From: Marsupella aquatica
Lineage: Eukaryota; Plantae; Marchantiophyta
Assembly: GCA_973895155.1 (NCBI GenBank)
Contig: OZ316895.1
Location: 18,960,508 to 19,024,507 of the forward strand
Length of the DNA: 64,000 nucleotides
Reading direction: 5' to 3'
The position numbers and the translations under genes were made by a program. Numbering within the stretch: position 1 is the stretch's first letter; the number at the start of each line of letters is the position of its first letter. Shown in pieces: positions 6,350 through 64,000 of the stretch. The notes under the pieces are model-generated. The model was not told where the DNA came from and did not search any database. It was given only the letters and a program-made list of their open reading frames with translations.

Positions 6350-6788
6350 GCGTCAAAGTCAGCAACACCAGAGCTAAGTGTTAAGGTAGTCAAGTTCCGC
6401 GACTGCCATCAACAAAGAATGGCTTCTTCTGGAACACTTGCACCAACCCACACATAGGAGAGATTGTTGACTCCTTGCGGGTGACCTTGCACTGAAATTT
6501 GGCAAGGCCAAAGATAGGTAAGGCACAAGTTTACGTTGCCAAAAGGCCAAACCCAAGTCGGGACTACAATGGGTACCTCCTCACCCAATTGAAGAAGATC
6601 CTGAAGGAGGAACAGCAGGTCATGGGCCAAGAGAGTGTTTCCCGACTTGTTGTACATAGTTGTGCTGGTATGCTCGGAGTAAAATTTTTGCACCCATATA
6701 TAATACCCTTATAGGCCAGAGCACCTAAAGAACGGTCAAAACAGACACCAACAGCAAAGGACCTCGAGCCGGTCGATAGTCCTACTAT
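6350..6788 (+). pseudogene. Degraded accessory ORF, 5' piece (homolog of the 50910-54529 ORF)
   Basis: IGKAQVYVAKRPNPSRDYNGYLLTQLKKILKEEQQV is nearly identical to a peptide of the 51755 ORF; continues at 28652. Confidence 0.8.
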
Positions 6789-7689
6789 CATGGAGGGTAA
6801 CTCACAACCCAAGTGTCACACCAAAAGAGTCGCCCTTACGCGGATTTTGGCTTAGGCGGCCATAAGCTTTGTAAATATTGAGGTTTTGGGCACGGAGGGA
6901 CGTGCAAACAGTACTTATTCCCATAATTGGATGCTAACCACATCCAATTCTAATTCTACACACATCACAGGTATGTTTTGTGTTCCGCCACCGAAACGTA
7001 CCTTAAGTCGATGACTAGATCAACCCCGGCTTAAGGACTTCTAAGCCTATGCATTATGAGCCTCCAATCCAGATCCGATGATAAGGGTATCTAACCTTGG
7101 CTCGCAACCACTGTCCGCAGCTGTCACCCCGTGTGCAGCTCGTACAATGCGTTCGGCCAAGCGTTCTATACCCGTATATGAGATTTATGACCATAATAGA
7201 TTCCACAACATACAATCTTGGTTTACATGAAGGAAATGATGGGGGAAAGACTTTTAATTAGAAATCCATCATACACAATTGACTCGACTTCTGCAGGAAT
7301 AAACAAGCCCAACGGCAGGAAGGTGTACACTACAACGGAGCCCGGCTCCGCACTCGCCCAACGAGCTTAGTCATACCCTCCCTCCGTGGTACTCTTTCAT
7401 TCACTAAGGTTGGGACTCCTTGCACATCCGGGGATACCCGATTCTAAACCTAAAGTCCCCCCCCCGCTACCTCTACCGGGGTGCACTAAATACTAACTAA
7501 GAGCCGTGGCTTGGAACAGTCACGAGCTCAAATCTAGTCTATTCTAATTTCAGCTAAATGCCAGGCCGTAAAATGGCTTGTTTCTATCCTAAGATTCTAT
7601 ACTAAAAGAGGGTTGACAATGCCGCTAACTAGTTTCGGCGTTTGTCTGCAGTGTCCAATTTCCTTGGCTAAACCTACGCTCTTCTAAAC

Positions 7690-9456
7690 TTGTCGCGCCG
7701 CTAATGTCTCTTCATGTTTGCCAGACCTGCCCGAGTGGGACTTGGAGCAGCCGTCCCGTTGCCTCCTCAGCCAGTCGGCGTCCTGCTAGAGGATCTGGAC
7801 TTGGTCCAGGAGAGACTTGTTCTCTTGTTTCACCGCGTCCATCTCCTTCGTGGCCTCTTGACATGCCTCTTCCAACTGTTGGCCGTCACTCATCAGCTGT
7901 GCCACCTGTTGGTCCTGTTTAGCAGCTTTGTGTAGAAGCCGTGCCACTTTTGCTTTCAAGGCGTCCACCTTGGCTGTATCCCTTTGGGCCCGAGCGTCGG
8001 CCTCCTCTATGTCCTTTTGCTAGATTACGGCTTGTCCTTTCAAGCCATCAATCTGGGCCCGGAGCCGTGAGATTTTGGCATCCTTTTTGGCCTAGCTTGT
8101 ATGGCCAAGGCTAACTTGGCTTTGGCGTCGGTGACCTGAGCCAAAGCAATTGTAAGTTGAGGCCAGAGAAGTTGCAGCTTGGTCTCTTGAGTTGAGGCTT
8201 CATCTAATAGTTGGGTTGCCTCCGCCCGATATCGCTCAATCTTAGTTGTGGCTTCCACTAAAGCCTGCCCTACTTTTACTGGCGCCACCAGCTCTTGGCT
8301 GAAGAAGTAAGCCACCTTGCGGACCATGAACTCCTCCATTTCTCGACTAATTTGTTGGAAGAAGTTGCCCAACAACCCATTCAAATACGTGCCCGGTGCA
8401 AAGAGTTCCAGGTTCACCAGGCTGTGCCCAGTCGGGTTAGGGCAGGGATAGACCTCTACTCGAGCAGAGGCCGAGGTTGTTACGTCCAGCCCCAGGGTAG
8501 TAAGGGTAGAGGGGGAGGGGCATCTAGTAAGGGGATCCACGTGCACAGACACAGAGGGTACCACGGCTTCCTCCAGAATTACGGCCTTGGGTTTGGGGCC
8601 AGCTTCAACCCGATCGGCTGTGACTGCATGGGCCTGGTTTTGGGCATCAGGGTTGCAATAATCACCAAGTCTGGCATAGAAGAAGGTGCCTCAATAGCTA
8701 TTTGTGGGGCCGGGGTGGACACCACTGGTGCTGGATTGCGGCTCTTGGGTTGTGGCCGCCTCTTCTGAGGTGAGAAGACCCACCTGGCCGGGGTGAGTTT
8801 GGGCTCGTTGCATCTTGGGAGGGTTTGTTGGCTGAAATTGGCGTACCACTCGATGATGATCTTGATATGGCTGGCAAGGTACGCGTCCCCCCCAAGGTAC
8901 AAGGTCTTCCTTTATCGTTCCATCTCCTCGTGGAACTTCTTGACAAAGAAAGAGGCCCACTTCCTAAGCCGGTAGTTCTTGACCTGGATCACTTGGGCGG
9001 CGGATATCTCACCCCGCGGCTTTATCATGTGGAGGGCATACCTTTGAAAATCCAGCCGCTCTGCAACCTTCGGGATGAGGCATGTCCTCATTAGGAAGCC
9101 GTTGTCCACCAAACCCTTGGCCGGGAAGCTGGATGTTTGGCACTTCGCTCCTTTACCCCTTGGGGCTCGTGATTCCACCCGGTTTGGTCCCTTGGGTAGG
9201 CTGAAGATGAGCTTTAATTAGTTGCTCTTTGTTCAGGGACATTACCCGTCCGTTGAACCGTACACCTGGGTCATGGTATGTCTTGACTGGGCGAGTGCCT
9301 GGGCTTCAGCAAAAATCTTGTTGAAGTGGTGCCGTTGTAGGTTGATGGTACCTGGAATTTGGAAGACCTCATCGGGGAGGCACAGGATGGCTTCCCCAAA
9401 GCCGATGTACTTATCTTCGTCAAAGAAGAGCTCAAAGATCTCTTTGTCCTTATAGT
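7690..9456 (-). pseudogene. Accessory ORF (plant-transposon-protein-like domain plus coiled coil) inside the LTR-like unit; 5' part at 24863-~25300
   Basis: FPAKGLVDNGFLMRTC...PRGEISAAQV aligns with FPGPSTKNGFFQNTC...PRAEIGKAQV of the 51755 ORF. The frame DFRLNFESKYYK|DKEIFELF is continuous across the MULE insertion site. Confidence 0.7.
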
Positions 9457-9956
9457 GAGGCTTTTCACGGTGACAGCAAACAGCAAACAGTAAAGCTCAT
9501 AGCAGTAAATGTCTGCACCAAAAAAATCTTCCCTAATCCGACATCTCTCGTAAAATGAGATCAAAACCTCTAAAATCCATCATTTAAAAACACATCGTAA
9601 TACTAGCGCCCAGCGCTACAGTCCTGAAACAGTCCAAAATACCCGAAACCTCATTCGAAACATCTATTTGCAAAAGTATCCCCAAAAACATATGTATACT
9701 AGCGCCCGACGCTAGTATACAAACCTCAATAATAGACTTAAAAACAGAGATCAACTTTAGGGTAAACACCCAATTGTAATACATCCCAAGTTAAGATTGT
9801 CCGCTTCATAGAGGAAAGTTTAGTCAAAAAACAATGTGGACAGTCCGTCTCACTTTATAAACACCCATCAATATTACATGTGTTCACAATAGCGCCAAGC
9901 GCTATTTTGTAAAATAGCCAATATCTATATCCCCAAAATATAGTTTTAAAGTCTGG

Positions 9957-12900
9957 CTAGCCATCAGATTCTGAATCAGTCGAATCTAGTTTTGATTCTT
10001 CTTCACTACTTTGTGATCTATCAGTAGACTCAGCTTCGTCGTCTACATACTTGCTCGGGACGATGTCATCGACATAGCGATTCTTCATAAAATTTCTATC
10101 AAAGCCCCTTTTGAGCCTCAGGCCTTTGCTTTCCCAAGTCAGCATTCTCACAGAATCTGCTTTTCGAACCGCCTTTTCTACATAAGAAGGCAAGACAAAC
10201 GGCTTCTCCGGGGTTTCTATTGCATTCCTAGCGACTTTCCTTCGTAGTTGAAAGCGCTTCCGAAGATTCCACTCAGACCTGGAAAGTTGAATCCGATATC
10301 TTTAGTCGGGTCCGGGAAAATGGTGGAATGTTGGAGACACTAACGTCACACTTAAAAAGAAAAAAAAGATAGGGAAGCTGAAGATCATTACTCAGAAGAC
10401 TCTTCACTATCCTCAGATTCAAAAGACCCAAGGTTCACCACTTTCTTGGAGGCCCCATCATCTTTGGAATGTTGCGTACCATCGCCTCCATCATTGTCCT
10501 CGTCAGAATCAAAATTAAGAACAGCACGGAGTCTGTCCTGCTTCTTACTCCCCACCTGCCGGTGCGGAGGTGTGGACGTGGAGGCCTCTTTATTCTCGAG
10601 AAGTCCAAAGAAAACTTTTGTGGCAGTGTCGAGAAACTCTTTACGATTTTCAATCCCGACTACAAACCTCCCACAATGATCTCCAGCAACAAATGTACTT
10701 CCGGCCCCAATAGTCCAATCTATGACAATATCCCCAGGGAGGGTAATTAATTCTAAAACGGACTGCATGAAACCCACAAGCAACCTTGAATTCCCGGCGA
10801 ACGCAAGCTCCAGCAGAGGATCATTTTTTGGCACGGGAAAACCAATGAGATTGGTTATTGAAGGATCCTCTGTATGTGAAAGAGGCCAAAATTTGGGATC
10901 CTTAGGGACCCTACCTTTGGACGAAACACGCCCAAAAACATTGAGAGTGAGCGTAAAAACCTGCACATCGAATAACGTTTTGTTCATAATAAACATCAGA
11001 TGCTACGTCGAGAATACGGAAATATTTCACGAAGAGGATATTCCACACTAGCGCCTGGCGCTAGCGTCGCCGTCAATCTCCAAAGGAGGACACCAAACAG
11101 AAACTTTGGAATAGCGCCAGGCGCTACTATACATACCTGCATATCCGAGCAAGGCCTGTACATTGGAGTGCCCATGACAACATTGTGTGTCGAGATACAC
11201 TGGAATTTCTGTGAATCTTGACAAGCTGCAATGACCTCGGAAACTTGGTCATAGTCGCCTCTATGCAAAATCGCTAGCAATCCATCATCTGCTAGGAAAG
11301 GATCCATTGTTCTGAAAAAGGCACTTGGAATCGTATAATCTTGAAGGTTCCATTTAGGAACCTTCCTATCCACAAGTGTTGGTTTCAACCCAGTTGGAAG
11401 ATATATGAAACCAGCATCAACTCCAAAAGCTCTTTCTTTTCCCCCTCGGACAACCCCTTTTGCTCGATCCCTAGACTTCACCAGCTCTTTCCCCCAACCT
11501 TCAATATTAGAAACCCAGTCCGGCTTTTCTCCCTTGTTAAACAGGGAATCAAAACATTCTGTAACACTCGACTCCACAAAACAATGTCAAGTACGCTTTT
11601 GTTTGAAATTCCCCACATCTCTTTGCAATCCAGTAGGCGCAACTGAATCTCGGGACAAAGATCCGAGCCTATCCTCAAGTGTTCCTCTCTTTTTCTTCTT
11701 CTTCATACTTGTTGCGTCCACTGGAACCACTGCCTTTCCACTCTCCCTAGGGGTTCCCTGATCTGGTGTATTTTCCGCACCAGTGTTAGCTTCAGAGGCC
11801 TGAGGAGTAGCGTCCTCTTTTACATCACCAGTAGCATCCGACTTCCTTCCCCCTGAAAGACGGAGAGACGATACTCAATGGAACTAGTTCTCATAATAGC
11901 GCTCGATGCTAGTATCAATTGGGGGAAAATACGTCATACAAACAAGAGCGGGAATACTTTACTGAATCCTAAGAGGCAAACTTACGTTTTTTAAGCGATC
12001 GAGTTGATTCACTGGGAGCTGCAGATTCATTCTTGGCCTTCACTCTTGGCTTTCGGCTCCGGTCAACATGCACGACGACTGTCTCGCATTTCTTTTGCAG
12101 TTCAGTTGTCAAAGCGTCCACTTCAATCGCAAGACCCTGCTTCATCTCCGATATGTACCTTGCTGGGATTTGCGACTTCTGTAACTTCATGAAAGCGTCT
12201 TTCTCCACCTCGTCGAAAGGCAGATCCCATTTGTCAGTGTCAAGATACCATGGGCAGTGGAGTCTCTCCCACTCTGACAAGGCGCAAGGTGGGAACTTTC
12301 CCTCAGCTGGGTACATCGAATACAGATCAACAAGGTGGTCACCATCTTTGATAATCACCCACTTTTGAAATGCACCAGGGTAAGCCCACAAAACCTCAGG
12401 AGATCGCAACTCCATCCACATGTAGAAACGGTAAACGTATCGCTTGGCTCGTTTCCGGTTCCGCTCAGTGTAGTCCTCCTTGTCTGCATACTTTGATGGC
12501 CACATTATGTTGAAAAATTTAGCCTTGACAAGGTCTCCAAATGATTTGAATTCTTTGATAATGGACTTCATGAGAACATCCAGGGACTCACAACCAGACT
12601 TGACAAGACGATCATCTGGCATGCGATCCAAAACCTGCTCGAGCGAGGTGAGGATCAATCCAGTAGCAATTTCCTCCACTAAATTCCAGATATGCCAGGT
12701 ATGGCACCATTGTTTTACAGGATCGTCGTTCACACTAGCTGGATGAAAGAACTGTTTCCAAATCTCCGGAGTGCAATGGGCAACGAGAAGGGTACACCTT
12801 AACTTTGGATCCAGATAAGTAACTACAGTAAACAGATGAGCACGGTCCATAGTGCAAATAACTGTATCGGGCTTTTTTTCTCTTTTGTTCTTCTCTGTGA

Positions 12901-14156
12901 TGGGAAACATTTCGGCACATGTAGCCAAGTAGTCACCAAAATCAGGGTGCAGCAATGGAGTGATCTTTGTTACTTTGATAGCCCAGTCTTTTGTCGCTTC
13001 CTTCATCATAGCTTCATGCCTCTTCTGCGTCTCCTCTTCGGACCACGGAGTCCCCTAGGCAGCTGCAAAATCCATGTCCACTTTGAACTGGTTTGTGTAA
13101 GATTTAATCTTGTTCTCACACAAAATATAGATGAGCACGTCTTGTGGCATCTTGTGTGTATACCAAGAACCCTTTCGAGTCTTCTTTCGAATGGCTTCAA
13201 ACTTAGCATAACTCGTAGCATCAATTAGGGGTTTGTAGTGCTCTAGGTCATGGGATAAAAGACGAGAGATTCTGTCGGCATCAAGAATCCAAGACGGCTC
13301 GACCACAGCTTGTCCCAACCTACGTCAAAATTTAAATGTAAATTAGCAGCGCCGGGCGCTAGTAAAACACCAAAGATAATATCACATCCAAAATCCATCT
13401 TGAACTAGTACGTCATATTAAATGAGGTTGTCCTGAGGAATGGCTTACTGGTTGACAGCGTGCATGGCAGCCTCGAGCTCCACGAGGGAACCTTTATCTC
13501 CATTGAAAACAATGCAAGTCACACGAGGGTGGTACTTAATGTTGTCCGGATGCTCTGCTGTCACAATCGACCACGAATACAAACGGTGATTTTCATCGAA
13601 GACACAAAACATCTTGTCCTTCAAAACTCTGAAATCAGGATCAGCGTCACACTCTTCCTTGAACTTGTCATTCTCGGCAACCAGATTGGGTCCCAAGAGG
13701 CTCATTAGTGCAAATCTGTGGAACCCCATCCGCATTCGTTGGTTGTATGTAAAATGGCATGCCCATGCGCAAATTGTATCCAGAAATCCGGAATGACTCC
13801 TTCAATTTGTCGATGGAGGCGCTCTGCTTCTGCAACGTCCGCACCACTTCCATATGAATCAATCGACATAGAGGAATTTGTGGAGGCTCCTTCTCCAATC
13901 CTCTGAAATCTTTCCCAAAGGACAAGACATGCTTGGAAATGTAATCGTCCATTGAAAGTCCAGCAACACCAAAATCAACTCGAGCAACTTCCTCAGTCAT
14001 GTCCATTCTCCCCCTTCTTGATCGCGTAGTCGGAAGAGTTGAGCCAATGTCTGAATGTGAATGAGACGCAACGGACCGAGTCACGCGACGAGTGTACACA
14101 GAACCTGAAAAAAAGGACTGTGAGGACTCGGAATGACCGGCATGACTATCTCCCAT
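9957..14156 (-). pseudogene. Multi-exon gene: ParB/Srx-like N-terminal domain plus beta-class N6/N4 DNA methyltransferase-like C-terminal domain
   Basis: VFDENHRLYSW (DGNHR with one G>A) at ~13585; VDAGFIYLPTG then FLADDGLLAI; TLPGDIVIDWTIGAGSTFVAGDHCGRFVVGIE (motif I-like) at ~10650-10745. In-phase GT-AG introns at 13448-13320, 11985-11853 and 11136-10961. Frameshifts and a TGA stop present; 5' and 3' ends uncertain. Confidence 0.72.
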
Positions 14157-14443
14157 CCTCGTATTACCCCACTGAGAGATGGCAATGGCGTTGAGCAGAA
14201 CGTCGGACAGTATCGTACAACTCTCCCAGAGCCCCTGATCCAGTACGGAGTAACAGACTCAGGTATAGAATGTCACGCTTGATCAGGCTGCTCCAGGAGA
14301 ATCACGTCTCTCCCACGAGCGCCAAGCCTCCTCAGAAGGTTAAGACATGGAGTCTCGAGCACATTAGAGTGTTGCTCAATGGTAACACCAACAGATCTGA
14401 ACACTTGGAAGATTACCATTGGACCAAAAACCGTCTTATGTGA

Positions 14444-14517
14444 CCAGCGATCCTCAATGTTACGCGTGACCAGCAATCCTCAAGGTTACGCGTGACTAGC
14501 AATCCTCAGTGTTACCG
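14444..14517. repeat. 26-bp tandem repeat, ~3 copies
   Basis: AGCAATCCTCAA(T/G)GTTACGCGTGAC units. Confidence 0.8.
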
Positions 14518-15297
14518 TTAAAATATGACCGTTGATCATTTTGGCCTTATTGATAGCGCCAAGTGCTAGCAAAAACAACTCCATATTACCTGATTGAAAC
14601 TACTAATTTCAATAGCGCCGAGCGCTAACAAATCTCCCACGTATATATATTTTACACAATTCAAATGGAATTCATGGATAGATGGACAAAATGGACATTA
14701 TTTGGACCATTTTATCCGTAAGCGTTATTAGCGCTCGGCGCTATCATAAATCGCATCCGAATCGATGTTACTCATCATGAGAGAGTAATACAACCTCTTA
14801 CATATCCACAAATATTTAAGAATCCATCTGGTATTAGAAGCATAAGTTTGAGCATTCCAATGCTAGCGCCAAGCGCTAATATGGAACCTGTCACGGGTAA
14901 GACCACTCCATCAAAAACTACAAGCATTACGAAGACTTTCAAAAGACATTTGGTGAAAAGATTTACTCATTCCCGTAAGGAAAAACATCGAAAAACACAA
15001 ACTGAATAATGAAAAATGCGTAAGGGAATGGCTAATAGATTCAAACTCCATTTAATGGTATCGGCTTTACTTCACAAAGTCTCAAAATATTGAGTAAAAA
15101 CATGAGAGTAACCTCCCAATAGATTCCGAGACTATCGTGTTGGCAAAAGATTGACTACCATTTCTACCATCATTGCATCAACTGGTCGTGGCTGTGAACA
15201 TCGAACTCCACCAAATGAGGTTGGTAATCTACTCAGGGTTATTGGGTTCTCCAGGATCAGACGGTCCATGCGTTAATCTCCAGTTTCAGTTGATCAG

Positions 15298-15735
15298 TTA
15301 ATCTTCCCACCAGCTTGGCTTGTACGCGTTCAAATCATCGTTGGAATCGCTAGAACCAACGCCCCAGCGAAACCCACCCCGGCTGCAAGAGGAGTCGTCG
15401 TTGGACCCTGACTCATCGTGGCTCCCTACATCATCGTCTGTATCCTTGCCTTCACTTGAAGAACGTTTTCCATGTCTAGGTGACGGGTGCGACGAAGATA
15501 AGCCCGCCTTCGACACCCGACATTTTTGCGCGACGGGTTGAACTTCTACTTTAGCCTGAGGAGCACCATCTGGTGCGGATACAACCCGGGTTTTCACAAT
15601 TACTTTCCCCTTCGCCAAGATCGGGATGTTTGAATGAGAAGGAGGCTTCGTGAGAGACTTCTCCTCAGCGCCCTCTCCATCGCTGCCGCTTCGAAACGTA
15701 ACCTGCGCCTTCCCCTTAGCTCGTGGTGGAGCCAT
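15298..15735 (-). CDS. Hypothetical low-complexity ORF in the MULE (separate gene or upstream exon of the ParB-MTase gene)
   Basis: 145-aa ATG ORF, K/S/D-rich, same orientation as the cargo gene; no recognisable domain. Confidence 0.4.
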   Translation of the reverse strand: MAPPRAKGKAQVTFRSGSDGEGAEEKSLTKPPSHSNIPILAKGKVIVKTRVVSAPDGAPQAKVEVQPVAQKCRVSKAGLSSSHPSPRHGKRSSSEGKDTDDDVGSHDESGSNDDSSCSRGGFRWGVGSSDSNDDLNAYKPSWWED

Positions 15736-16799
15736 GGAAACTTAAACAAACGACTCTGAACGATCAAGACTGAACGGAAGTTTCTTGTATAAAAATGGAC
15801 GCGGGAGCGCAAAAAATGTTTCTGAGAACAAAGAACTTCAAATGGTGAGAGGCAGACTCGCCGGCCAGGTTTTGAGGACAGAGGTGAGAACGTTCAGATT
15901 TCCATGGACGTCTCAGATGTAATGGTTTCCGATCGTGCAATTGACGTCCGAGATGCGTCGATTGTGGAAACTTTAATGCACACGTGCGTACTTGGACTGA
16001 TTCACGGATTTCCTGTCTGTTGTTAGAGGTAGAACGTATGAGCTTTGATGATAGCGCCGAGTGCTATTATTACAATCTGAGTTTTCCCTGTCCTCCTTGC
16101 CATGCGGTACTGTATTCGGTCGAGAGTCATGCTTCCATTGTCAAGTTGTTCCCCGTTCACAAAAGTAGCGCCCGACGCTATTAAACTCCCGACAATTAAG
16201 CTGGTTCAATACAGCCATTGAATAATGACAAAATTCAATTGATTTACATCGTCCAAACCATTAACGTAACTTTCTTTGTCATTATTCAATGTTCTTTTAT
16301 ACTGTCGTTATTAACCTCGTACATCAAACAAGACTTAAACCGATTGGGGAAGTGAGACATCGATTATTATCTTCCGCTGAAATGGGACGATCGATCGTAG
16401 TGAGACACAAGGGCACGCGGGATGTCGTCACGATTATCGTATCCCCTGAATCTCAGTCAAGGAGAGTTTCGGATGAATACTTGGGGTTGAGATTTGATGT
16501 TTCCAAAGAGTGTATTCTCTCTGTGTCCCTCCTCCCTAAGGATTCAAAGGCAAATACCATCTTCTATGATGTCATCGATGGACTCAGGTTTTGGATGATG
16601 TATCCGGAGAAAGTATACGAGGTCTTTGTTTTGGAAGATTCTGAAGCATCGGAAGATCTATGTCCTATTCCCGGTGGTGTTGATGTTGTCAATCTGTCTG
16701 ACACTTCGGAAGATGACGGGAAGAATTCGCCCCTTTCCTTTGATGTCCCGAAAAGGATCTCAGTGGATCCCTTGGTGGTGAAGATGGAGGTTCAAGATG

Positions 16800-19700
16800 T
16801 GTGACGCCAATGACATGGTCCTTATTTTGTAATCTGATTAAGTAGGTTGCTGTATGCAAGGAGTAGCTATTGATATTGCATAACAATTAGCAAGATGGCA
16901 AGAATAAGGGCAAGCATGGCGTTAAGAGTAGGGAAATAAAAGCTATGTCGCAGGTGGTCGGCGACCATATCTCTTTCAATATGTCACCAAATCCGGATCT
17001 GTAAAGAGCATTGGAAAGATCTGGTCAAGGCGAGTAAAATCGATATAAAACACTCGGGAAACGGAGGTGTATTAAGAAAGATACGGCCTGATTAGTGTGA
17101 CGGGTTAACTTGTGGCCGGAATTAGCGGATTCGGCTTCAGTTTCGGGTTAACCCAAGCTCGACCACGGCTTAGCTTATGTGAGCACGGCTTCAGCTTAGC
17201 TCAGGTCAGCACGGCTTCAGCTTAGCTTAGGTCAGCACGGCTTCAGCTTAGCTCAGGTAAGCACGGCTTCAGCTTAGCTTAGGTAAGCACGGCTTCAGCT
17301 TAGGCTTAACCCGAGTTCGGATTAGATTGATCCCGGGTTAGACTTAACTCGGGGTCAGGTTAGCATAGGTAAGCTCGGGTTCGGGCTCAGCTTAGGCTAG
17401 GATAGTGGATAGCGGATAGCGGGTGACGGCCTAACCCGAGACCACGGGTTAGCTCTACTCGGGTTAGATAGGATAGCTAGGTTAGCCGAACTCGGGTTAG
17501 CTATGTAACTCGGGTTAGCGCAACAGTGAGTACCCCCTCTCGGTTACGGGGGCATAACTCTCTGTGTATTTGACCAAATCGGCTATAATTGACCTCGTTG
17601 GAAAGAGGAGCTCAAGCAGCTTCCAACGCTGCTATCCACGCAGAAAATGGTTAAATAGAGAAATCGGGAGAGGAGGCGCAAGCTCGCAAAAACTATGGAG
17701 GAGGGCCGAATCCGAAGTACATAGCCAATTTGAGATAGAAATAAAGTTGCGAGTTAGGGTTCAGTAGTTAGAGATAGTGGCGGCTCTATTAGGGCTGGGA
17801 TGGGGCTCCAGCAGCGTAGCATCCACCCATTTGGGCTCAATGAGAGAGTATATAGAGCATCCCTCCGGTAGAGGCAGGGGGGGTTTTTAGTTTCAGAGTC
17901 GGACATCCGCGGGACATGCGGGGAGTCCCGACCTCTGGGAATGACAGAGTACCAAGGGGAGGGGGTAGGACTAAGCTCGCCGGGCGAGTGCGGAGCCGGG
18001 CTCCGTTGTAGTGTGCACCCTTGGCCTTGAACCTGTGCATTCCAGGGCTGTCGTGTCAACTAAGTGTACGCATATGTTCCCTTTGTAGTAAAATCCTTTC
18101 CCATCATTTTTCCTTCGTGTAAATCGAGATTGTATGCATGTGTGCGCATATGTGTGTGGGTTTCTCGTATATGGGTGGCAGCGCCGGGCCGAACGCACTA
18201 CCCGAGACGTGCACGGGGTGCAGCCTGCGGGTAAGTGGTTGCGAGCACGGGTTGAGGACCTGTATCATCGAATCCGGATCGAAGGCGGACAGCACGAAGG
18301 CTTAGAAGCCCTTAAGCCGGGGTCGATCCTGCTATCGACTAAGGTACGTTCCGGCGGCGGAACACAAACCATACCTAGGAGGTGTCCGTATTTAGCAGTA
18401 TGCGCACTTAGCGCTAGTTTACGAGAATAAGGTGCATTACGTGCTTCCCTTCCTGCCCGAACCCTCAGATTTACGAGGGATGTGCCCGTCTAAGCTGAAG
18501 TCTAAGTTAAGGCCGAAGCCTACGACGTGACATAGCCTTTGTTTTGGCTCTAGATGGAGGGGATGGAGCTATGTTGTGATGCTGGTAAGAGTTCTTATCT
18601 TGTGAGGAAGGAGTATCCTCTGTTGGTGCTGGATTTTAGAAGTGCAGGAGTATGTACAGTGAGGGGAGCAAAGCAATATGTTCACATTTGAAGCTCACTT
18701 GTGTACATTGGCATGCTGAGGAGGAGGTTCTGGCCTATCTACACGGGGAATCTCAGCTTAGAAGGAGGCAAAAGAGAAGTTAGTATTTTGTTTCCCTCTA
18801 GATCCAGGATGTTGTGTGAAGCGGGGACGCTTCACAGTTAAGTAGGGGGATATGTGACGCCAATGACATGGTCCTTATTTTGTAATCTGATTAAGTAGGT
18901 TGTTGTATGCAAGGAGTAACTATTGATATTGCATAACAATTAGCAAGATGGCAAGAATAAGGGCAATCATGGCGTTAAGAGTAGGGAAATAAAAGCTATG
19001 TCGCAGGTGGTCGGCGACCATATCTCTTTCAATATGTCACCAAATCCGGATCTGTAAAGAGCATTGGAAAGATCTGGTCAAGGCGAGTAAAATCGATATA
19101 AAACACTCGGGAAACGGAGGTGTATTAAGAAAGATACGGCCTGATTAGTGTGACGGGTTAACTTGTGGCCGGAATTAGCGGATTCGGCTTCAGTTTCGGG
19201 TTAACCCAAGCTCGACCACGGCTTAGCTTATGTGAGCACGGCTTCAGCTTAGCTCAGGTCAGCACGGCTTCAGGTTAGCTTAGGTCAGCACGGCTTCAGC
19301 TTAGCTCAGGTAAGCACGGCTTCAGCTTAGCTTAGGTAAGCACGGCTTCAGCTTAGGCTTAACCCGGGTTCGGATTAGATTGATCTCGGGTTAGACTTAA
19401 CTCGGGGTCAAGTTAGCATAGGTAAGCTCGGGTTCGGGCTCAGCTTAGGCTAGGATAGCGGATAGCGGATAGCGGGTGAGGGCCTAACCCAAGACCACGG
19501 GTTAGCTCTACTCGGGTTAGATAGGATAGCTAGGTTAGCCGAACTCGGGTTAGCTATGTAACTCGGGTTAGCGCAACAGTGAGTACCCCCTCTCGGTTAC
19601 GGGGGCATAACTCTCTGTGTATTTGACCAAATCGGCTATAATTGACCTCGTTGGAAAGAGGAGCTCAAGCCGCTTCCAACGCTGCTATCCACGCAGAAAA

Positions 19701-21232
19701 TGGTTAAATAGAGAAATCGGGAGAGGAGGCGCAAGCTCGCAAAAACTATGGAGGAGGGCCGAATCCGAAGTACATAGCCAATTCGAGATAGAAATAAAGT
19801 TGCGAGTTAGGGTTCAGTAGTTAGAGATAGTGGCGGCTCTATTAGGGCTGGGATGGGGCTCCAGCAGCGTAACATCCACCCATTTGGGCTCAATGAGAGA
19901 GTATATAGAGCATCCCTCCGGTAGAGGCAGGGGGGGGACTTCAGTTGTGTGATCTCACTTAGACTGAGTAGCGGGGAGGAGCTCTGTGCAAGCAAGGCTG
20001 GACTTGGACGCTGCGTGTTGGGGAGAGCTTGGTTGTGCTATACTCAGGGAGTAATCAGCCAAGCTTCACAGCAACGGGTTGCTAGGTTTGCGAGCTGGAT
20101 TGTGGCTCTTTCTAGCGGGCAGCACAACTGGGTTCTTTTCCCCCGATACAGAGCCTTGGTGATAGGTGATGTATTGGTGATTGTAAACTGTGGGGAGGAT
20201 TTCAATTCGATTTGTGGTGGGCACATTAGGGAGGCTGAGGTACTGATTAAGGGGCAGCAGGAGGAGCATTTACAGTTCAGTCTGGCAAGGCTACGTGACC
20301 CATGGGGAGTCCCGGCCTTTGTCTGGTGGAGAGCACTAAGGGATCTATGGCCAGAGCTGAGCTTGCAGGGCAAGCGTGAGGCCGGGCCTCATTGCAGTCT
20401 GGGGTAGATTGCCGTTAGGCCTGGTACCAGCTTTGAAGTCGAGTCAACTATGCATGCGTAACTTGACGTTCTGAATTGGAGGTGTGAGATCTGTATGTGC
20501 CCCCAAGAATGAAGTGCAGTGAAGGAGGTTGAGTTCAGGATTGAGCTTGCATGGCAAGCACGGGGCTTGCAGGGCAAGCACGTCACAATCTGGAGGAGAC
20601 AGCCTTCGGCCCTAGTGTTCGGATCAAGTGTTCTCAGTGAACTATTGTGCACATCTTTGAATCTAATTGAGTTTTCCTCTCAGGCCTCATTTCTCTCATG
20701 GATGTGTGTGTGTGTGAGGCAATCTGAGTGTATGATGGAACTAGCAGCGCCACTGAGAGGTGTACCGGGTGCATTGAAGCGGGCTGGGTGAGGACTGTCA
20801 TAGCTCTGATTGTTGAGAGTGGAATGGCAGAGTGGTGGGGCAATGGCTTAGAAGTCCCTAAGTCGGGAATCAGTCAGGAGTCACTGGTTTATGGGTACAT
20901 TCCGGCGGCGGAATAGAAACATACCTATGACAGTAAGCATATGTATAGACCTATGCGCACCGTAGCGCTAGGCCCTGTGTGTATGGGCCCGATATGAAGA
21001 CCCCTTCTCACCAGAACTATCATGAGCGCAGATCTGATCCCCAACCTCGGTTCCTTGGGATTGAGCTTGGGTGATGTGTGATAGAGTCTTGCTATGATAG
21101 TCTGGTGTTAAGGGCATAAACTGGTGTTTACCGGCATTCACAACATCCCTTCGTGATCCTCAGGTACAAGGAGATGGTTTTGGCACCCATAGTGACGTTT
21201 TTGGTGTTAAGACCCATGTCAATCGCGTGACA
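16800..21232 (+). mobile_element. Non-autonomous LTR element with two dissimilar LTRs (16800-18532 and 18853-21232)
   Basis: TSD AGATG at 16795-16799 and 21233-21237; both LTRs run TGTGACG...CGTGACA; PPT AGTAGGGGGA at 18841-18850; 320-bp internal segment. Confidence 0.9.
17160..17305. repeat. 26-bp tandem repeats in U3 (also at ~19215-19355 and ~2075-2185)
   Basis: AGCACGGCTTCAGCTTAGCT(C/T)AGGT(C/A), about 5 copies. Confidence 0.85.
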
Positions 21233-24200
21233 AGATGTCCCAATTGTATATCGGCAAAGTGCGATGGATCTATCCTAAAATCGAAGGGACATAGCGAGTT
21301 ATCTCATTTCATCAGGGAGAAGGATTTCACGCAGATAGTTCCCAGCCTCCCGAACAATTCTTGCCAATTCTGGAGAGACAAAAAGACTAGGAACAACCAA
21401 GTCTGGGCGAGATCACCAAAACTATCAGGCACCTTTCGAGTTGGAGAACTCATACCGCAAGGTGGTATTGTCTGTCACCACTGCTCTGAACCTCCGATGT
21501 GTACAACATCGTGTTCGGCCATGATGTTCTATATGTATCCTTCGGCCAAAGTGGATTCAACTCATTTGGTGTATATCGGCTGGCTGTGCACATGGGATTT
21601 CACAACCATCCCAGTCGTCGAGTGTGGCCGAGAGAGGCTGAAAAGGTTGCTAAGACTCACCTCGCAAAGGAGTTCCAGGCTAATCCACGAGCTACGCCCG
21701 TTGGGATAAAGAATGCGGCTACAGACTCTCTAACCAACGCCCTCTGTGAGGAATCCATGCAGGAAATGTCTTCGGAAGAGGAGAAGGAGATCTGGGAGTC
21801 CCTCATGGTTGTTGCTACCCCACAAAAGTTTGCTTTTGTTCTGCGAAGTGTGAGACAAGACCAGAAAGGCAAAGGTGAGCTTGAATATTTGGTGTGGATG
21901 CAAAAGTGTGTGAGACTTCCCTTTCTTCATAGGTATTTGCTTCCAGGCCAAGGATGTCGAGACGAAAGTGCTCACATCTTCAAGATGACTGAAAGGCTAA
22001 GGATCTGGGATCGACCTTCTCCAGAAAATGCAGACCGGTGGTTCATTAGAAGGGTCATGGGTGAGCTTCGACGTCATGCATAGAATTACATCGGACTGGC
22101 TAACTTTTAGTGTTCATGTATATGATCATCACTATCGGGCGCTTTGTACAATTTTCACTTGTGAATTAAAGGCTGAAGACACCAAGTCCTTAGAGAGAGC
22201 GTGGCAATTGATGATAGAAGTTGCGAGTGAAAATGGCCTGGAGAACATTCAAATTCGAGGATTCATGGCGGACAATGCCCAGGCTGGATGGAATGCGGTG
22301 CAAAATGTTTTCTTCAATGGGGTACCTGATCCTGACCGAGAGCGATCAGATGCGTTTCATTTTTATCAGTCATTTCGTCGGCATTCACGCGAAGGTGTTC
22401 CAGAAGGAAAACTCAAAGAACACAAGAAGATGTGGGATGGTCTTCGTAACACAAAAACATTTTTGGACGCATATCGTATGTCAAGAGAGATCGACGATTG
22501 GTGGAGAGCTGGAAATTGCCATCAAGGGAAGCTTCAAATGTTGCAAGGATGGCTCTCATGGTGGGTCGTCCGTTGGAGACAATGGGGAAACTTCATTAGG
22601 CTGGTAAGGATTTTCTTAGATTCATGATAGTCCGTTACCATTGATTTGTAATAGTGCCCGACGCTAATATGGAAAATGATTATTCTGACTCCAATTCCTT
22701 GTTACAGTATAGTAGCGCCAAGCGCTAGTATGAACAAGCACACTTTTGCAACTATGAACATGGCAGTCATGCAAGAGATTTGATAGTGCCAGGCGCTACT
22801 TATATATTAGAGAGTCCATATTGCATAAATACAAACTACACTTGTCGCAAATTACTGTAGTTACTAAATTTTGTTTCCGATGACAGAGGAAGAGTGTTGA
22901 GGCAGGTATGATTCCGAATTGTACTGGTTCGGAATCGGTCCATGTAGGCATGAAGGCGTGGCAAATGAAGAAGCGGGTTGGCCTCATGGAGGGGTGCAAA
23001 ACTGACCAAAACCGAGTCGTATGTCAGATAGCAGCATATACTGCATACGGTCGAGGATTACATTGAGGAAGTGGACCCACTATCTTTGAGCTAGCTTTCA
23101 GATCTGCCGACATGACAGGGTCTCCGCGTCTATTTGAAGAAGCGACCAATCTCCTTCTTTCCAACGCAGCTGAATTTGATTTGGAAAGAACTGTTCCATT
23201 GAATGGAGACGTCATAACTCGATCGGTGAAGCGAAAAGGTAATGCAAGTGGGAATGTCTCGGCACAAGACTCTCACAGGCATGATACTATCCTTGTGACT
23301 TCACCAAATACAAGGGGTTTGAAGAGAAGAAACCTCCATTCCACAGACTTCGAGAAGATGTCTTCCACACCTTCTGCTGGTGGAAGTGGCGTTGTTAATT
23401 TGTCTCAAACTGAGAGTGAATATTTTGAGGAGGTCGTCGTCCTTGAGACACCCTCATGTCGAACAACAAGATCTTCTGTTCCTCCCGTAGGACATCAAGC
23501 TGAGGCCGTGCCTGAGGAATCTCTTCTCCCAATGGAAACTGACATAGCTCCAGGTCTCTGGCAGCTCCGTCGAACTGCAAAATGCGGTGCTGGTCCAACT
23601 TGTAATGGGACCCTCGGTTGGAGAGGAAGCCGCGATGAATGTTGAAATTGAGTAAAGAAGGTTGGGTTTCCAAATCCAGAAGGAGTTGTCGCAATATTTG
23701 TAAGAGGATGTAGACTTTTTAGAGGAGAACCTCATCCGGACCAGATATGGTTTTGCCCAAACAACAAATGTCACAAAAGTCGGCCAAGAAGAGGTGTTTC
23801 AAACATTCCCAATATACCATCCGTTCTTCCCATTGCGAGAGGGACCAATCTCCAGGAGGGCGAGATCCAATTCTTGAGAGAACAAGGTCTACTTGGTACA
23901 GGAGAGGTAAGGGAAGATCAGGAGCCATCCCCGTTTGAGTTACGCATCGATGTGAATTTGTTCCAAGAGAGGATCAATTTAGCGGACCCAATTTTCAAAT
24001 GTGGCTCCAAGAATGGAAGGAAGTGCTTACAGAGAGTGAATCTAACTCAAACACATTACAAGAAGATCGAAGCATCCGAAACATAAGTAATGAGGCTCAT
24101 ATGCGAGAGAGATGTCACGAGAGGGAATGCGTGGGGGAAGTAGTATTGTATCAGAACACATGAACATGAGAGGAATGTTGCCTCTTATTGGGTGCAGATT

Positions 24201-24704
24201 TGTTGTTTCCCTTGCTGTTCATGTGAGGATTTCTATCGGAGGCACATTTATAGGAAACCTTACATGCCTTGCAAACATCTATATTGGGTATTCAGGACTG
24301 TGTTAAAGTTGAGTCTTCACGATTCGACACTATCTAGTCAACCAGTTCTGACATTGGGCGAAGTCCGTTACCTGCTTGATCGACAAAATGGAACGGACAT
24401 GTAGTCAATTTGGTGCCGTTCAACAGCTTTAAATGGCATTTGTCTTTTCTAACGGACAGAAGATGTACCCGTTTCTTATCTAGAAAAATGTGTTGTCTGT
24501 TGCTAGCGCCTGGCGCTAGCCAAAATTTGAAACAGATAGCAAATATATTGACTGTTAAATAAAGCACGTGTTCTTATAATGACCTTTATATTGCCCGTTT
24601 ATTATCATTGAATGGTGGGCCCCATTATGTTAGCATTTCAGAGAGCGCTTATATGGTTGTTATTTTTTAACATCGAGCCATTTTTTTGAACTTTGAATAA
24701 CCTA

Positions 24705-24830
24705 TAAAACTCGTACAAGTAAATAGTTTCTCGTATGAGTAAACAGATTTCCAGCTATGAGTAATTGAAATCCTCATATGAGTAAATTTTTGCTCGTACG
24801 AGCAAAAAATTTGCTCGTAACAGCAAATCT
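24705..24830. repeat. Subterminal repeats of the MULE
   Basis: About 6 copies of CTCGTA(C/T)GAG(T/C)AAA (palindromic core) just inside the right TIR. Confidence 0.75.
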
Positions 24831-25346
24831 ATTTACTATTTGTTGTCACGGTGGTTATACCCCTTATAGTACTTGCTTTCAAAGTTGAGTCTGAAATCAC
24901 AGATCCAATGGGAATGGCCTAGCAAATGGACACGACATTTGAAATGCTTCTCAATGGCATACCTCTGCGGATTGATACCAAAACCGGACAGCTGAGCTGG
25001 ACAGGATAGGGCCAATCATATGGCAAGGTGTGCTTGGTTGCTAAGGGAGATGGAGGAGCTGCTAACAAAGCTGGTGCAAGGAGTGAACTGACGATATCAG
25101 AGGCAGCGAAGGGCTTGCCTTACATACCCTTGTGGGGCGTCAACCGATCGGCCCCTCCTGCCTCTGATAGGCCAAGTCCCTCACACTTAAAGTGTACCGG
25201 CCATTCCTCAGGTCCGGGTCAAGGCTTGTCAGAGGGCCGCCTCCTGGATTATATGGATCCGAGGTAGACGGCCATAACGCGCTCGTAATCCGTTGGTGCA
25301 CCACCAGCCCGAAGCATGAATGCTCTTTATTGACTAAACTTGTCCT

Positions 25347-30256: not shown

Positions 30257-30299
30257 GTGGCAATGACAAGGTTGTCGGGTGTAGTGATGGCCAAAATAC

Positions 30300-56699: not shown

Positions 56700-56794
56700 A
56701 CATACACTACAATAAACACAGCTCGGGACACGTTCATGATTAAGAGCTCACAAATGATTCCCTAAAAAAAGAAAGAGAAACATGATTCAACAAT

Positions 56795-59119: not shown

Positions 59120-59720
59120 GAGGTATAGCGACCGAGACAGCAAACAGGCAAACAACAAATACTTTTCCTGTTTGCCTTATGCTGTTACCAGGAAAAAACA
59201 TCTTGTACCAGGGGAAAGAACACACAATCAGGAGTTTAGAATTGTTTAAGTTGGAGTTAGGCCATTGCGGTGAGGGAGGATACCATGTCATGAATCGCTG
59301 AACCACATAATAATTGAACCTCATATCCCAACACAAACAAGGGGGAGCATACATAAAAATGTCAAGGAATGCGCACAAAAATGGTAGGTCCCACCACAAT
59401 CGGCAACAAAATATATAAAAATAATACAAAATGAATGCATCCCAAAACTTTATGGTATTATATGGTCCAAAATAAATGCGAACAACGTCTTGACTAGCGC
59501 CTGGCGCTATCTTATCGGTATTTCAGGAAACAAATAGTTGGCGTTGAGAACATCAAGCACAACACAATGATATTTAACGGTGTAGCCTAAACGACAAAAT
59601 TATCAGCGCCTGGCGCTAACAAAACATGACGCGACATAAATAACACTTTTCCGTTGACATACGACAAAATCAATATAACCGTTTGGACCAATAATACAAC
59701 CTACATCATCATGATTCATG

Positions 59721-62700
59721 CTATAAACCATGAGCATTTTGCCTCTCTAATATGAGCTGAACCTCTCCAACAGTGAGAATTGGTTGGCTGGTCAATGTAG
59801 ATTCCTCAACGTCTAGTTTGAAAACGGTAAGGAAAATCCAATACAAATGTTTGCAAGGCATATATGGATGTTTCTGAGAATGTCGCCGATAGAAATCCTC
59901 ACACGAGCAAGTGGGGAAAATGCAAATTTGAACAAAATAACAATTTGGCGTCCGCATATTTTCGTGCGTTTGCACCTTAAACTGCTTTCCCCATGCATTC
60001 CCAATCGCAACATCCCACTCTCCCTGAATGGACATCGTCTCTTTTTTTGCAGACGCAATTCTGTTCATGTGACCCTGGGTAAGATTTGACCGAGGAACCG
60101 TATTCCTCCCATTCCGGCTTCGGAGACAAACATTGGGTTCGACAAGATTCACATGTTCTGGAAAGATATTGACATTGATTTGAAGATCAAAATCTGACGG
60201 GGGTGTAGTTGTACGTTCATTTCCGCGCACTAGGGAGATTCCGTTGTCAAGAAGATATTGCAGCTCGTCTTCCGAAACATTTGTCCCTTTCAAAACGGGA
60301 AGAACATCTGGGAAAGGGGGCAGGTTCAATACACCTCGACGAGGGCGGCTTCTGTAACATGTATTGTTTGGGCAAAACCAAATCATTTCGGTTATGGGTC
60401 CCCCCCTAAAAATGCGTTGTCCTTTGACAACAACGCCGATAACACCATGTGGTGAGGGAAATCCAACTTTTTTCATGCGATTGCGACACTCATCTCTTTC
60501 AAAATTACGGGAAAATGATCCGTTGCACTGAGGACCAGCGCCAAAATTTGAAGTTCGACGTAATTGCCATGCAGCTGGAGCAACCTCGGTCTCACGGACA
60601 AGATACTCTTGTAACGGTTGCTGAAGCACGGAGGGAGCAGTCTGGGGAAGCCTCGTTGAACGCGTTCGGTCTCGAGCAGGAGGGGTATTGAAATCGACAT
60701 CTTCTCCACCGCCCGAAATGTCACTTCCAGACAGATTAACAACAGGATTAACTTGAGGCGTGGGGCCAGGGATAGCATCAAACGTCGTGAGATTAAGATT
60801 CTTCCTTTTCATCGATCTAGTATTGGGTGAGGTGACAAGGATTTTATCATGCCTATGGGAGTCTTGTGGCGAGATATTCCCAGAAGCATGTCCTTTCCTC
60901 TTCAAAGATTTGGTGACAACGTGTCCATTGAGAGGTGCACGTCTCTCCAACTCAAACTCGGCAGCATTGGACAGTAGCATATTCATTGCATCTTCATACA
61001 ACTTGGGGGAGCATGCCTAGTCCGCTGATCGGAAAGCGAGTTCCCAAATTGTTGGACCTTTTCCTCTATGCAACCCTTTCCGATACGCAGTGTAAGCAGC
61101 AACCTAAGAAATAGCTCGATTTTGGTCCATTTCACATGCCTCAAAGAGGCCAACCTTTTTCTTCATTACCCATGCTTTCATACCTGCGTGCACGGACTCT
61201 GATCCTGTACAATTAGGAATCTTAGCCCCTTCTTCGACACTCTTGTTCTGCAATTACATAGAATAAATTGTCCGTTATGCAACAAGAAAACACTAGCGTC
61301 GGGCGCTAGTGAAGTACAGTCTGTACCTAGAAGTAAAAACTGGCACTGTCCATTAAGGGATGACTTATTGCGTCGTATTGTGTCATATCACAGTTTGAAT
61401 AAATGATAGCGCCAGGCGCTAGTATTAAAGGATGCTATGGTATTGTAATATTTGAATATGGATACAAACATTTTGTAATGAGAATATAGCACAGTAATAC
61501 CTAAAGAGCGGAAAGCAAAGTAAACTAACTTACCAAACGAATAAAATTTCCCCATTGCCTCCACCTGACGACCCACCATGAAATCCAACTCGGGAGCATC
61601 CGAAGCTTCCCCGGGACACAGTTACCTGACTTCCACCACAAATCAATCTCCCTTGAAATTCTGTAAGCCTCTACAAACGTGGGGGCATTTCGCATCTTAT
61701 CCCAAAGCCTCCGATGCTCTCCTTGACTCTCTTCAATCACTCCTTCAACTGAATGGCGACGGAAGGCTTGGTAGAAATGGAATGCGACAGTTCGCTCACG
61801 CTCAGGGTTTGGATACCCTCCAAAAAAGACATTTCGGACTGCCAGCCAACCAGCTTGAGCATTGTCCGCCATGAATCCATGAATAATCGGATTTTCTAAT
61901 CCATTCTCCTTGGACACCTCAATCATTAGTCTCCAAGCCTTCTCGAACGACTCTGTATCCTCCGCTTTTAGTTCGCAGGTAAATAAGGTACACAGAGCGC
62001 GATAGTTATGATCGTAAATATGCGCACTAAAAGTAATCAAGTCTTTTGTGAGTCGTTTCATCACATCAAAACTTACCCAAGAACCTTCGAGACTTCCACC
62101 AGGTTGCATTTGTCTCAAAAGATCGACGCCTGATCCATGGCCGATCGAAGTCATCTTGAATATGTGAGGACGGTCTTCTTGAGACCCTTGACCTGGTAGG
62201 AGGTACCTTTGGAGGAAAGGTATGTTGACATTTCTTTGATACCGAACAAGAAAATCTAGTTCACCTCGACCTTTCTGGTCCTGTCTAACACTACGAAAGA
62301 GGGACGCAAACTTCTGGGGTGTGGAAACTACCATGAGCGACTCAAATATCTCGGTTTCTTCAATATCTTGAATATCTTCCACACTTTCATACAAGGACTT
62401 TACAAAAGACCCTGTTGCCACATTTTTTACACCAACAGGAGTGAAAATTGGATTTCCTTCCAATTTCTTTTTGATAACCTCCTCAACAATCTTCTCTGCG
62501 CTCCAAGAAAACACCTTTCTTGAAGGATGGTTGTGCATCCCCATATGAATTGCCAAGCGGGACATGTGAGTACAGGTTTCTGAGTCAACTAGAAGCTAGG
62601 GGTACATGTAAAATAACCTTGCTGGACAAGATTGGACACAAAACGGAACTTGATCACAAAATTGGCAAACAACTCCACCTTCGTCAAGGAAGGAGCCAAC

Positions 62701-63814
62701 ACGATGTTGCCCGCCAAGTTTAGGGGTTCCACCCCAGGCCTTCTGGTTCCTCCTTTTCTTCCGTCGAAAATAGTCGCAAGTATTATTCCTACACTCAATG
62801 GAACCAGTGCACATTACTTTACCAAATTCCCAATATTTCTTGGGATGAACATTAGCTGATGTAGGAAATATTCTGGTCCAGATGTAGCAATCCTTCGACC
62901 GGTCCATGTCGCGTAGACGTGACCCCTTTGAAAGAGCTCCCGTAGGAGGCAACTCGAATACAATATTTCCATTGTATTTCTTTGGCAAACAACCGACTTG
63001 TTCATGGCAGAAGTCCCCAGCCGCGATGAACCTCGAGATTTCACTGGAACCAGTTGACTTGAGAATGGTATCCATTGCACTTCTCCGATACACAATGGAA
63101 TTTTTGGTAAAAACTGCTCTAACCTCCTGTTTAACAGGGGTAACCTCCTGTTTAACAACTGTGTGAGGGGGTTTATCACTAGACTCAGGCAAACTAGAAG
63201 GTCCATCATCGTCGCTATCTGAAAGCAAGACAACATCAACAAAGGGTTTGGATGAAGATGGGAGATCGGATTGCGGCGGCGTTGCTGATTGAGGGGTCTG
63301 CTTTTTGGGGGGCTGCTGTGGGAAGGGCATGGGTGCTCTCTTGATCGGTGTTATTTCCCTTCTTTGAGGGGGGGCTCTCCCTGGGGCTTTGATGCTCTCT
63401 TTTGTGCTTTTGGGCTCTCTTTGTGGCTCGCTAGTGTGCTATTGCTGTCCCTGTATTAAGGGCTGTTGTTCCCCCTATCCGTGGGGTCTTTCACGGTATT
63501 AAAATTTATAAAAAAAACCATTCCAAGGAAGATGGGAGATCGGATGCGACTGGTTTTCGAATGACAATAGAATACCGAATTCCTGCATTCAGGTGCCAAA
63601 AACGAATCCCGTCATCAACATCAAAAGAAGCAGTGAAATTAGAGGCTTCATCTCCGTTCCCCTCCTCCAAAATGTTTTCAATGTCATTCAAATCCAAACC
63701 AAAGCGCCCACAGAGATAATTCTCACTAACTTGCTTGTATACGTCATTGGCCGACAATGGAATGGATACAAGGTCACCCGTAGACGGACGCGTCAGAATG
63801 ATTGACCTCGACAT
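59721..63814 (-). pseudogene. GCM-MULE-SWIM transposase, copy 2
   Basis: Collinear homolog of 16382-24404; same intron position (61533-61248); CTGSIECRNNTC...CQFC...C...HMGMHNHP; CSCEDF...CKH; stops present. Confidence 0.87.
63254..63545 (+). mobile_element. Short retroposed (LINE/SINE 3'-end-like) insertion in the transposase
   Basis: 18-bp duplication GAAGATGGGAGATCGGAT at 63254-63271 and 63528-63545; A8 tract at 63510-63517, 10 nt before the right duplicate. Confidence 0.55.
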
Positions 63815-64000
63815 TGTAAGATCATCCAACCCAAAAACACTCAGTTCACAATAATGAATGACGTCTTCGAATGCACACAATGGTATTCATAGTCAATAAT
63901 CCGTTTGTTAGAGCCGTTAGAATACGACAGAATCACTACCGGTCGAAACCACATCTGACACAATAAATGTTTTTTGTCGTTATGTCAACGACATTTACAC

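Follow-up and report, generated by a model that had tools for sequence, protein, structure and literature searches.

What kind of gene carries the beta-class methyltransferase-like domain encoded in this part of the Marsupella aquatica genome, and does the domain still transfer methyl groups? We addressed these questions in a window of 64,000 nucleotides (contig OZ316895.1, 18,960,508 to 19,024,507), to which all coordinates below refer. The original prediction was of a horizontally acquired, intronised enzyme, either divergent or a catalytically dead DNA-binding module. The peptides on which it was based are present on the minus strand, VDAGFIYLPTG and FLADDGLLAI in one exon, with the Y codon TAT at 11403-11401 and the T codon of YLPT at 11394-11392, and motif I as DWTIGAGST, which starts with its Asp at 10720. 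The spliceosomal intron proposed between YLPT and motif I is also found, at 11136-10961 (176 nt, GT-AG, phase 0), reading GTATGT..GTGCAG and joining DMQ to VFTL in frame. The predicted interval, 9957..11577, is part of a real gene, comprising a piece of exon 4 with exons 5 and 6, but the transposon surrounding it was missed. The domain sits in a multi-copy DNA transposon and not in an ordinary host gene.

The transposon extends over 9472..24847, as defined by matching termini and a target duplication, and measures 10,938 bp without a nested insert. At the left end (9467..9483, plus strand) the target duplication ACGGT (9467-9471) is followed by the terminal repeat GACAGCAAACAG, and at the right end (24836..24852, minus strand) the terminal repeat GACAACAAATAG precedes the second duplication (24848-24852). 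The terminal repeats are ∼12 bp long, with GACA[G/A]CAAA common to three ends, two of the main element and one of a sister element. A retroelement-like reading frame interrupted by the transposon is continuous across the reconstructed empty site. Read by eye, the target duplication is perfect over 5 bp and contains one mismatch over 9 bp, and 1-, 3- and 7-bp readings fit as well, because the target is near-palindromic; Mutator target duplications are given as 8–11 bp in the accessible part of PMC6446971. The interrupted frame (7700-9471 and 24848 onward) resembles the ORF at 51686-52933 (26% over 147 aa), a retroelement-like accessory gene in the region 50862-54529, with further relatives at 6406-6789 and 29286-30295. 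Elsewhere in the window, a Gypsy pol fragment at 44841-48870 is bordered by direct repeats of 677 bp with 99.85% identity, which marks it as an insertion or duplication of very recent date.

The transposase gene (16381..24404, plus strand) is probably Mutator-like, with D..D and H motifs and a SWIM-like end, and is interrupted by stops, frameshifts and a nested LTR-like insert at 16800..21232, read by eye from its TG..CA borders and 5-bp duplication AGATG. A 1,088-bp stretch of this insert is duplicated internally, 26-bp units form tandem arrays in it, and an inverted relative lies at 123-2854. Alignment of the transposase with IS256 (hhalign, E 0.015, one decoy reaching 0.04) places the D and CxxH in register. 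A SWIM finger, CxC..CxH, is visible by eye at the C-terminus, and Pfam SWIM is matched at E 0.053 in the relative L019. No Pfam MULE match was obtained for the transposase, nor any match to plasmids or the PDB. The IS256 register and the SWIM-like end make a Mutator-like assignment, drawn mainly from motifs, probable but short of proof, and of the readings of the target duplication only the imperfect 9-bp one fits; on sequence grounds the element is likely a Mutator-type DNA transposon. The sister element (59136..64000, minus strand) has the same terminus at 59136, contains four palindromes and runs past the window end. Its transposase is 53–72% identical to that of the main element over three aligned segments and 28–49% in N-terminal pieces. 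The sister transposase is nearly intact, with a GCM/WRKY-like Cys-His N-terminal part (by eye), a DDE core and a SWIM-like end. The insertion targets at 9467-9471 and 59131-59135 read A-C-[G/C]-G-[T/A], a hint of CG/CHG preference from two insertions only.

The methyltransferase-like domain belongs to an accessory gene that lies head-to-head with the transposase in this one 11-kb element. Its exon model, predicted from DNA, consists of six exons from 15735 to 9957 on the minus strand, joined by five GT-AG introns of matching phase. Exon 1 (15378..15735) is of low complexity and Ser/Asp-rich, with a tentative donor site; exon 2 (13449..14104) encodes the ParB/Srx-like domain and contains frameshifts near 13680 and 13700; exon 3 (11986..13319) encodes a domain of ∼445 aa, for which no family match and, in the atlas search, no usable match was found, and is interrupted by TAG at 13057-13055. 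Exon 4 (11137..11852) encodes a linker, with TGA at 11589-11587, and the N-terminal half of the beta-class fold, with YLPT at 11403-11392. Intron 4 (10961..11136) is followed by exon 5 (10392..10960), in which motif I, a motif II reading GIE, a replaced HPxxKP and an acidic tail are encoded, and by exon 6 (9957..10278), whose tail is basic and then acidic before the stop. The coding length is 3,955 nt plus 8 nt found in other copies, corresponding to 1,320 codons and a stop.

The window copy of this gene is broken, with two internal stops and two frameshifts. Other copies were detected in sequencing contigs from four runs of two studies, covering all 30 bins of 8600-16790. Each run contributed 1,530–2,194 contigs over this region at 85–100% identity, a depth that does not give copy number, indicating that the accessory gene region is a diverged multi-copy family. 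In part of the contig depth, insertions at 13680 (1 nt) and 13700 (7 nt) reopen the exon 2 frame. Neither internal stop appears among the variant rows listed from the sequencing contigs, and no variant of the Y codon at 11401-11403 is present among the 40 of 358 variant rows listed.

Exon 2 reads DENHR at 13597-13583 in the window, while the other copies carry C at 13593 throughout their depth in 4/4 runs and encode DGNHR instead, which we take to be the ParB/Srx signature DGxHR, a GxxR motif following a strand. A distant metagenome relative, L023, reads VWDGNHH. We refer to the putative exon 2 domain as ParB/Srx-like, a label given mainly by this motif, as the exon returned no credible Pfam or PDB match, hhalign of the region against real ParB gave E 0.45, the same as decoys, and a single-sequence model was unusable at pLDDT 35. 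Phage single-strand binding proteins (E 0.02–0.8) and DacB (E 1e-4 with a 3-row profile) were also considered for this exon, and both are likely chance matches.

In the C-terminal domain, the motif I exon scores above the Pfam threshold for N6_N4_Mtase (28.5 bits versus 26.7, E 1.9e-6), and Pfam gives no match for the motif IV exon. With the motif IV exon as query, phmmer returned 41 matches at E ≤ 0.001 among 1.84 billion representatives, and five of the 30 looked up are Calypogeia fissa gene models. In two of these, P0009 and P0015, one protein runs straight through the intron 4 junction, while many relative ORFs lose similarity exactly at this position, which indicates that the intron 4 position is a family trait. 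The AlphaFold model of P0015 (34-row alignment, pLDDT 66.5, middle loop poor) retrieves CcrM (E 8.8e-6), M.BceJIV and M1.HpyAVI first in Foldseek. VIA Z scores for the model are 10.8 for both MboIIA and BceJIV (rmsd 3.8–3.9 over 163–168 aligned residues), 10.5 for HpyAVI, 10.2 for CcrM, 9.5 for PvuII and 9.0 for N4CMT, and at most 8.7 for METTL3 and protein/RNA methyltransferases. Beta-class DNA enzymes therefore score best, and the condition named for rejecting the original prediction, absence of a Rossmann SAM-binding fold or a best match to RNA or protein methyltransferases, did not arise; motif IV lies N-terminal to motif I, as in the permuted Rossmann fold of this class. Residues 120-395 of P0009 returned PF01555 clusters in the atlas at 0.94. 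Among PDB sequences, P0009 matched CcrM at E 0.068 and the family profile had no match, and word-index protein searches, which are weak evidence, gave none.

Conservation of the fold is not accompanied by conservation of the catalytic motif. The family xLP(T/N) aligns on DPPY/DIPY/DLPY of phage enzymes, with hhalign (E 0.013, weak) and MAFFT in agreement. Motif IV was counted in the window sequence and 40 relatives, from which the repeat protein P0038 was dropped; P0030 and P0032 miss the motif and P0036 is probably misaligned. Among the 39 rows spanning the motif, position 1 is A in 12, Y in 11, F in 7, S in 4, C in 3 and R and T in one each, and position 4 is T in 28, N in 5 and one of six singletons in the remainder. 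Relative to the catalytic (D/N/S)PP(Y/F/W), D or N at position 1 and an aromatic residue at position 4 both occur in 0/39 rows, and S at position 1 in 4/39. The proposal that YLPT derives from an ancestral DLPT finds no support in this alignment, D and N being absent from position 1 in every row, and YLPT is thus not a recent mutation of DLPT. HPxxKP, located before the SAM-binding strand, is present in 8/8 phage enzymes versus 0/4 family rows spanning it. Of the SAM-binding motifs, D..G.G of motif I and G.E of motif II are kept in 5/5 rows, but the Ser of GSG is replaced by E or A. In the bdelloid enzyme N4CMT, the available text of PMC10406627 describes the Ser of SPPY as hydrogen-bonding at the acceptor site, the Tyr as modelled stacking on the base and His253 as binding ribose, and that of PMC8885841 reports that conversion of SPPY to APPA abolishes activity.

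N6/N4 methyl transfer has probably been lost in this family, as judged from the aligned motifs. The 'catalytically dead' option of the original prediction is backed by this loss across the aligned rows, and since the catalytic motif is missing in every aligned relative, the protein is likely a non-enzymatic DNA-binding helper. Among 28 long rows, median identity is 30%, while P, W, N, W, F, L and G residues are each kept in >85%, including a PxWNxWD loop. From this retention despite the low identity and motif loss, we infer a pseudo-enzyme under selection. When the methyltransferase model is compared with viral folds, a phage protein labelled ParB/Sulfiredoxin ranks seventh, and beta-class-type methylases are carried by phage ParB-terminase loci according to the accessible text of PMC4738411, making a phage-type source plausible. 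Phage sequence matches to the domain are weak, with identity <40% and a best E of 1e-4 among the matches listed; a prokaryotic or phage origin of the domain is a plausible reading.

Distant relatives were found in metagenome contigs with the transposase as query, after a first metagenome scan had found none. The scan yielded 42 loci, with 25–42% identity, that fall into 23 non-redundant groups; accessory pieces are present in four of the ten locus groups having at least 4 kb upstream. In L023 the transposase lies on the plus strand, while the minus strand encodes both the motif IV exon and the ParB-like domain (E 2e-8). L048 contains the ParB-like domain without the motif IV exon. The reverse is true of the L038 group, whose motif IV exon lies on the strand opposite the transposase, and in L031 the motif IV exon shares the transposase's own strand, perhaps coming from an adjoining element. 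At motif IV, the decayed metagenome copies, a sister clade, read NVPSN twice and EVLRN once, with a polar first residue and an aromatic residue in 0/3. These loci gave no detectable match to the motif I half. Two further features were observed in these contigs: in L045 (14807-18976), downstream of the transposase relative, the spaced palindrome GATTG-N5-CAATC occurs 12 times at ∼72-bp multiples, and in L038 (4601-9500) a ∼550-bp inverted pair (81% identical), probably a nested insertion, occupies the gap between transposase and methyltransferase-like exon.

A candidate binding site is present in the element itself. Seventeen copies of the palindrome TAGCGCYnRGCGCTA (≤2 mismatches) occur in the main element between 9604 and 24518, starting at 9604, 9700, 9890, 11049, 11112, 11897, 13347, 14554, 14613, 14729, 14864, 16052, 16166, 22652, 22713, 22784 and 24504. 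All 17 are in non-coding DNA although 66% of the main element is coding. At ≤1 mismatch, 19 are found in the window, all within the two elements, versus a shuffle mean of 0.00 (100 shuffles). Most are internal, located in introns, with those at 11049 and 11112 in intron 4, and in the gap between the divergent gene starts; others lie near the ends, at 9604-9890 and 24504, and at 59495 and 59604 in the sister element. None of the metagenome relatives contains the palindrome, and no other recurring palindrome could be linked to them; the paired-palindrome pattern is absent from the viral contigs searched. The first intron of the accessory gene contains three 26-bp tandem repeats (14440-14515) beside four palindromes, and a single match to YAGTATTAY at 9605 is taken as chance.

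The window copy carries A/T versus G/C of other copies at 156 of 314 variant places (run X1), and several of its palindromes have C-to-T changes. CpG o/e is 0.92 (CI 0.77–1.04) in the element's non-coding DNA and 0.72–0.73 in its exons, the latter similar to young retroelements (0.75–0.78). Near palindromes it is 0.90 versus 0.70–0.77, a small rise and a weak hint. The lowest value in the window, 0.32, belongs to a Harbinger-like DDE_Tnp_4 transposase at 55605-56747. The element copy in the window is a relic, broken and apparently methylated.

Several known systems resemble parts of this arrangement. The beta-class amino-methyltransferases (CcrM, M.MboIIA, M.BceJIV and M1.HpyAVI; PF01555) share its fold, the order of motif IV before motif I and the acidic residues of motifs I and II, but the family has xLP(T/N)G for (D/N/S)PP(Y/F/W), lacks HPxxKP and conserves the PxWNxWD loop, and the accessory gene has introns, a long N-terminal fusion and a transposon location. 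Red algal Plavaka/Mutator elements carry both domain kinds beside inverted repeats, in PAG2 (PF01555 and SET) and PAG3 (ParB-like and 2OG oxygenase), the PAG3 ParB-like protein adjoining the repeats (bioRxiv 2025.02.11.637652, accessible part); the likeness is one of described domain content. In contrast, one spliced gene with both domains is predicted here, no SET or oxygenase match is found in the accessory exons, the methylase motif is degenerate and the palindromes are dispersed rather than tandem. Arabidopsis VANDAL is likewise a Mutator-type element with an accessory gene, whose product VANC binds short sequence motifs located in the introns and in the intergenic and terminal non-coding DNA of VANDAL, as described in the available text of PMC5735166, and a family-specific short motif in non-coding DNA is equally present here, in 17/17 cases. 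The protein domains differ, however, as does the motif, a 15-bp palindrome versus a tandemly repeated, non-palindromic motif of 9 bp, and anti-silencing is demonstrated for VANC, whereas in the present element it is proposed by analogy. The N6A-methyltransferase domain of the DIRS1 retrotransposon is also transposon-borne and, in the accessible part of PMC4738411, judged inactive in all copies, but it is PCIF1-like, unpermuted and part of a retroelement polyprotein, whereas the present fold is permuted beta-class in a DNA transposon. Methylases and ParB proteins as transposon cargo, and a transposon methylase that is inactive, thus have precedents. In the literature searched (main texts, mostly open; supplementary alignments from the red algal study and from Iyer et al. 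may hold relatives), no description was found of a ParB-like and pseudo-methyltransferase gene on bryophyte DNA transposons.

We tentatively favour, at somewhat below even probability, an accessory pseudo-methyltransferase of the transposon that would be non-catalytic, bind the palindromes of its own element and protect that element from being silenced by host methylation. The ParB-like N-terminal part would load at the parS-like palindromes and the dead methyltransferase fold would grip nearby CG-containing DNA, a division of labour that we consider evenly poised between right and wrong. Bound on its own element, the protein would counter host silencing; this purpose, suggested by analogy with VANC and Plavaka PAG3, is the more tentative part, and the decay of the window copy by C-to-T changes and the weak CpG signal argue against protection. 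Also counting against the favoured reading are the lack of the palindrome in the metagenome relatives, the polar first residue of motif IV in the sister clade and the presence of accessory pieces in no more than four of the ten locus groups. Alternatively, the accessory protein or the transposase may bind the palindromes as an aid to transposition, pairing short ends or choosing targets, with the methyltransferase fold reading sequence or methylation and with no role in silencing. The shortness of the terminal repeats, the clustering of palindromes near both ends and the CG-type sequence of both insertion flanks (two insertions only) are consistent with this, but the location of most palindromes in introns and between divergent starts, like VANC sites, makes it rather unlikely. 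Methyl transfer could also persist, the protein being an atypical active enzyme or an inactive subunit of the METTL14 or MTA9 kind paired with an active one, 6mA- or 4mC-marking the element. Retention of the motif I and II residues, N or E at position 1 in the sister clade, the dimeric state of beta-class enzymes (PMC10406627, available text) and the proposal in the accessible part of bioRxiv 2025.02.11.637652 that red algal PAG2 is an adenine methylase speak for this reading; however, all 39 rows and the three sister-clade copies lack the stacking aromatic, the HPxxKP motif has gone and the element shows no partner enzyme, and we regard it as unlikely.

Passive Pack-MULE-like cargo, decaying without function, would fit the stops and frameshifts of the window copy, the fragmentary Calypogeia models and the metagenome copies full of stops, but is made very unlikely by the retention of residues and intron position at a median identity of 30% and by recurrence of the head-to-head layout beside transposases only ∼30% identical. 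A horizontally acquired host gene writing 4mC, the comparison drawn in the original prediction, is extremely improbable. Marchantia DN4MT1 and bdelloid N4CMT do represent a prokaryotic-type beta-class fold in a eukaryote, and N4CMT and PvuII score within the same fold class. However, the likeness does not extend beyond the common fold, since both are active host genes carrying (T)SPPY, DN4MT1 without extra domains and N4CMT with a chromodomain, whereas the present motif IV lacks SPPY and the gene is multi-copy and lies inside transposon ends. The accessory protein is almost certainly not a 4mC writer of the Marchantia or rotifer type.

Within the favoured reading of a non-catalytic, palindrome-binding accessory protein, a bolder and unlikely version can be formulated, in which a ParB-like clamp would load at the intron palindromes, spread and carry a methyltransferase that is catalytically dead but flips bases and so keeps host methylases away from CG/CHG sites. 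If true, bryophyte transposons would run a bacterial partition-style self-recognition, with anti-silencing assembled from components of phage type and unrelated in origin to VANC. As a second plant system, the element would have domains that can be recognised and a clear candidate site, and could be examined by gel shift and by expression in a liverwort model. In addition, PF01555 matches in bryophyte genomes need not represent 6mA or 4mC writers, which matters given the real 4mC enzyme of Marchantia.
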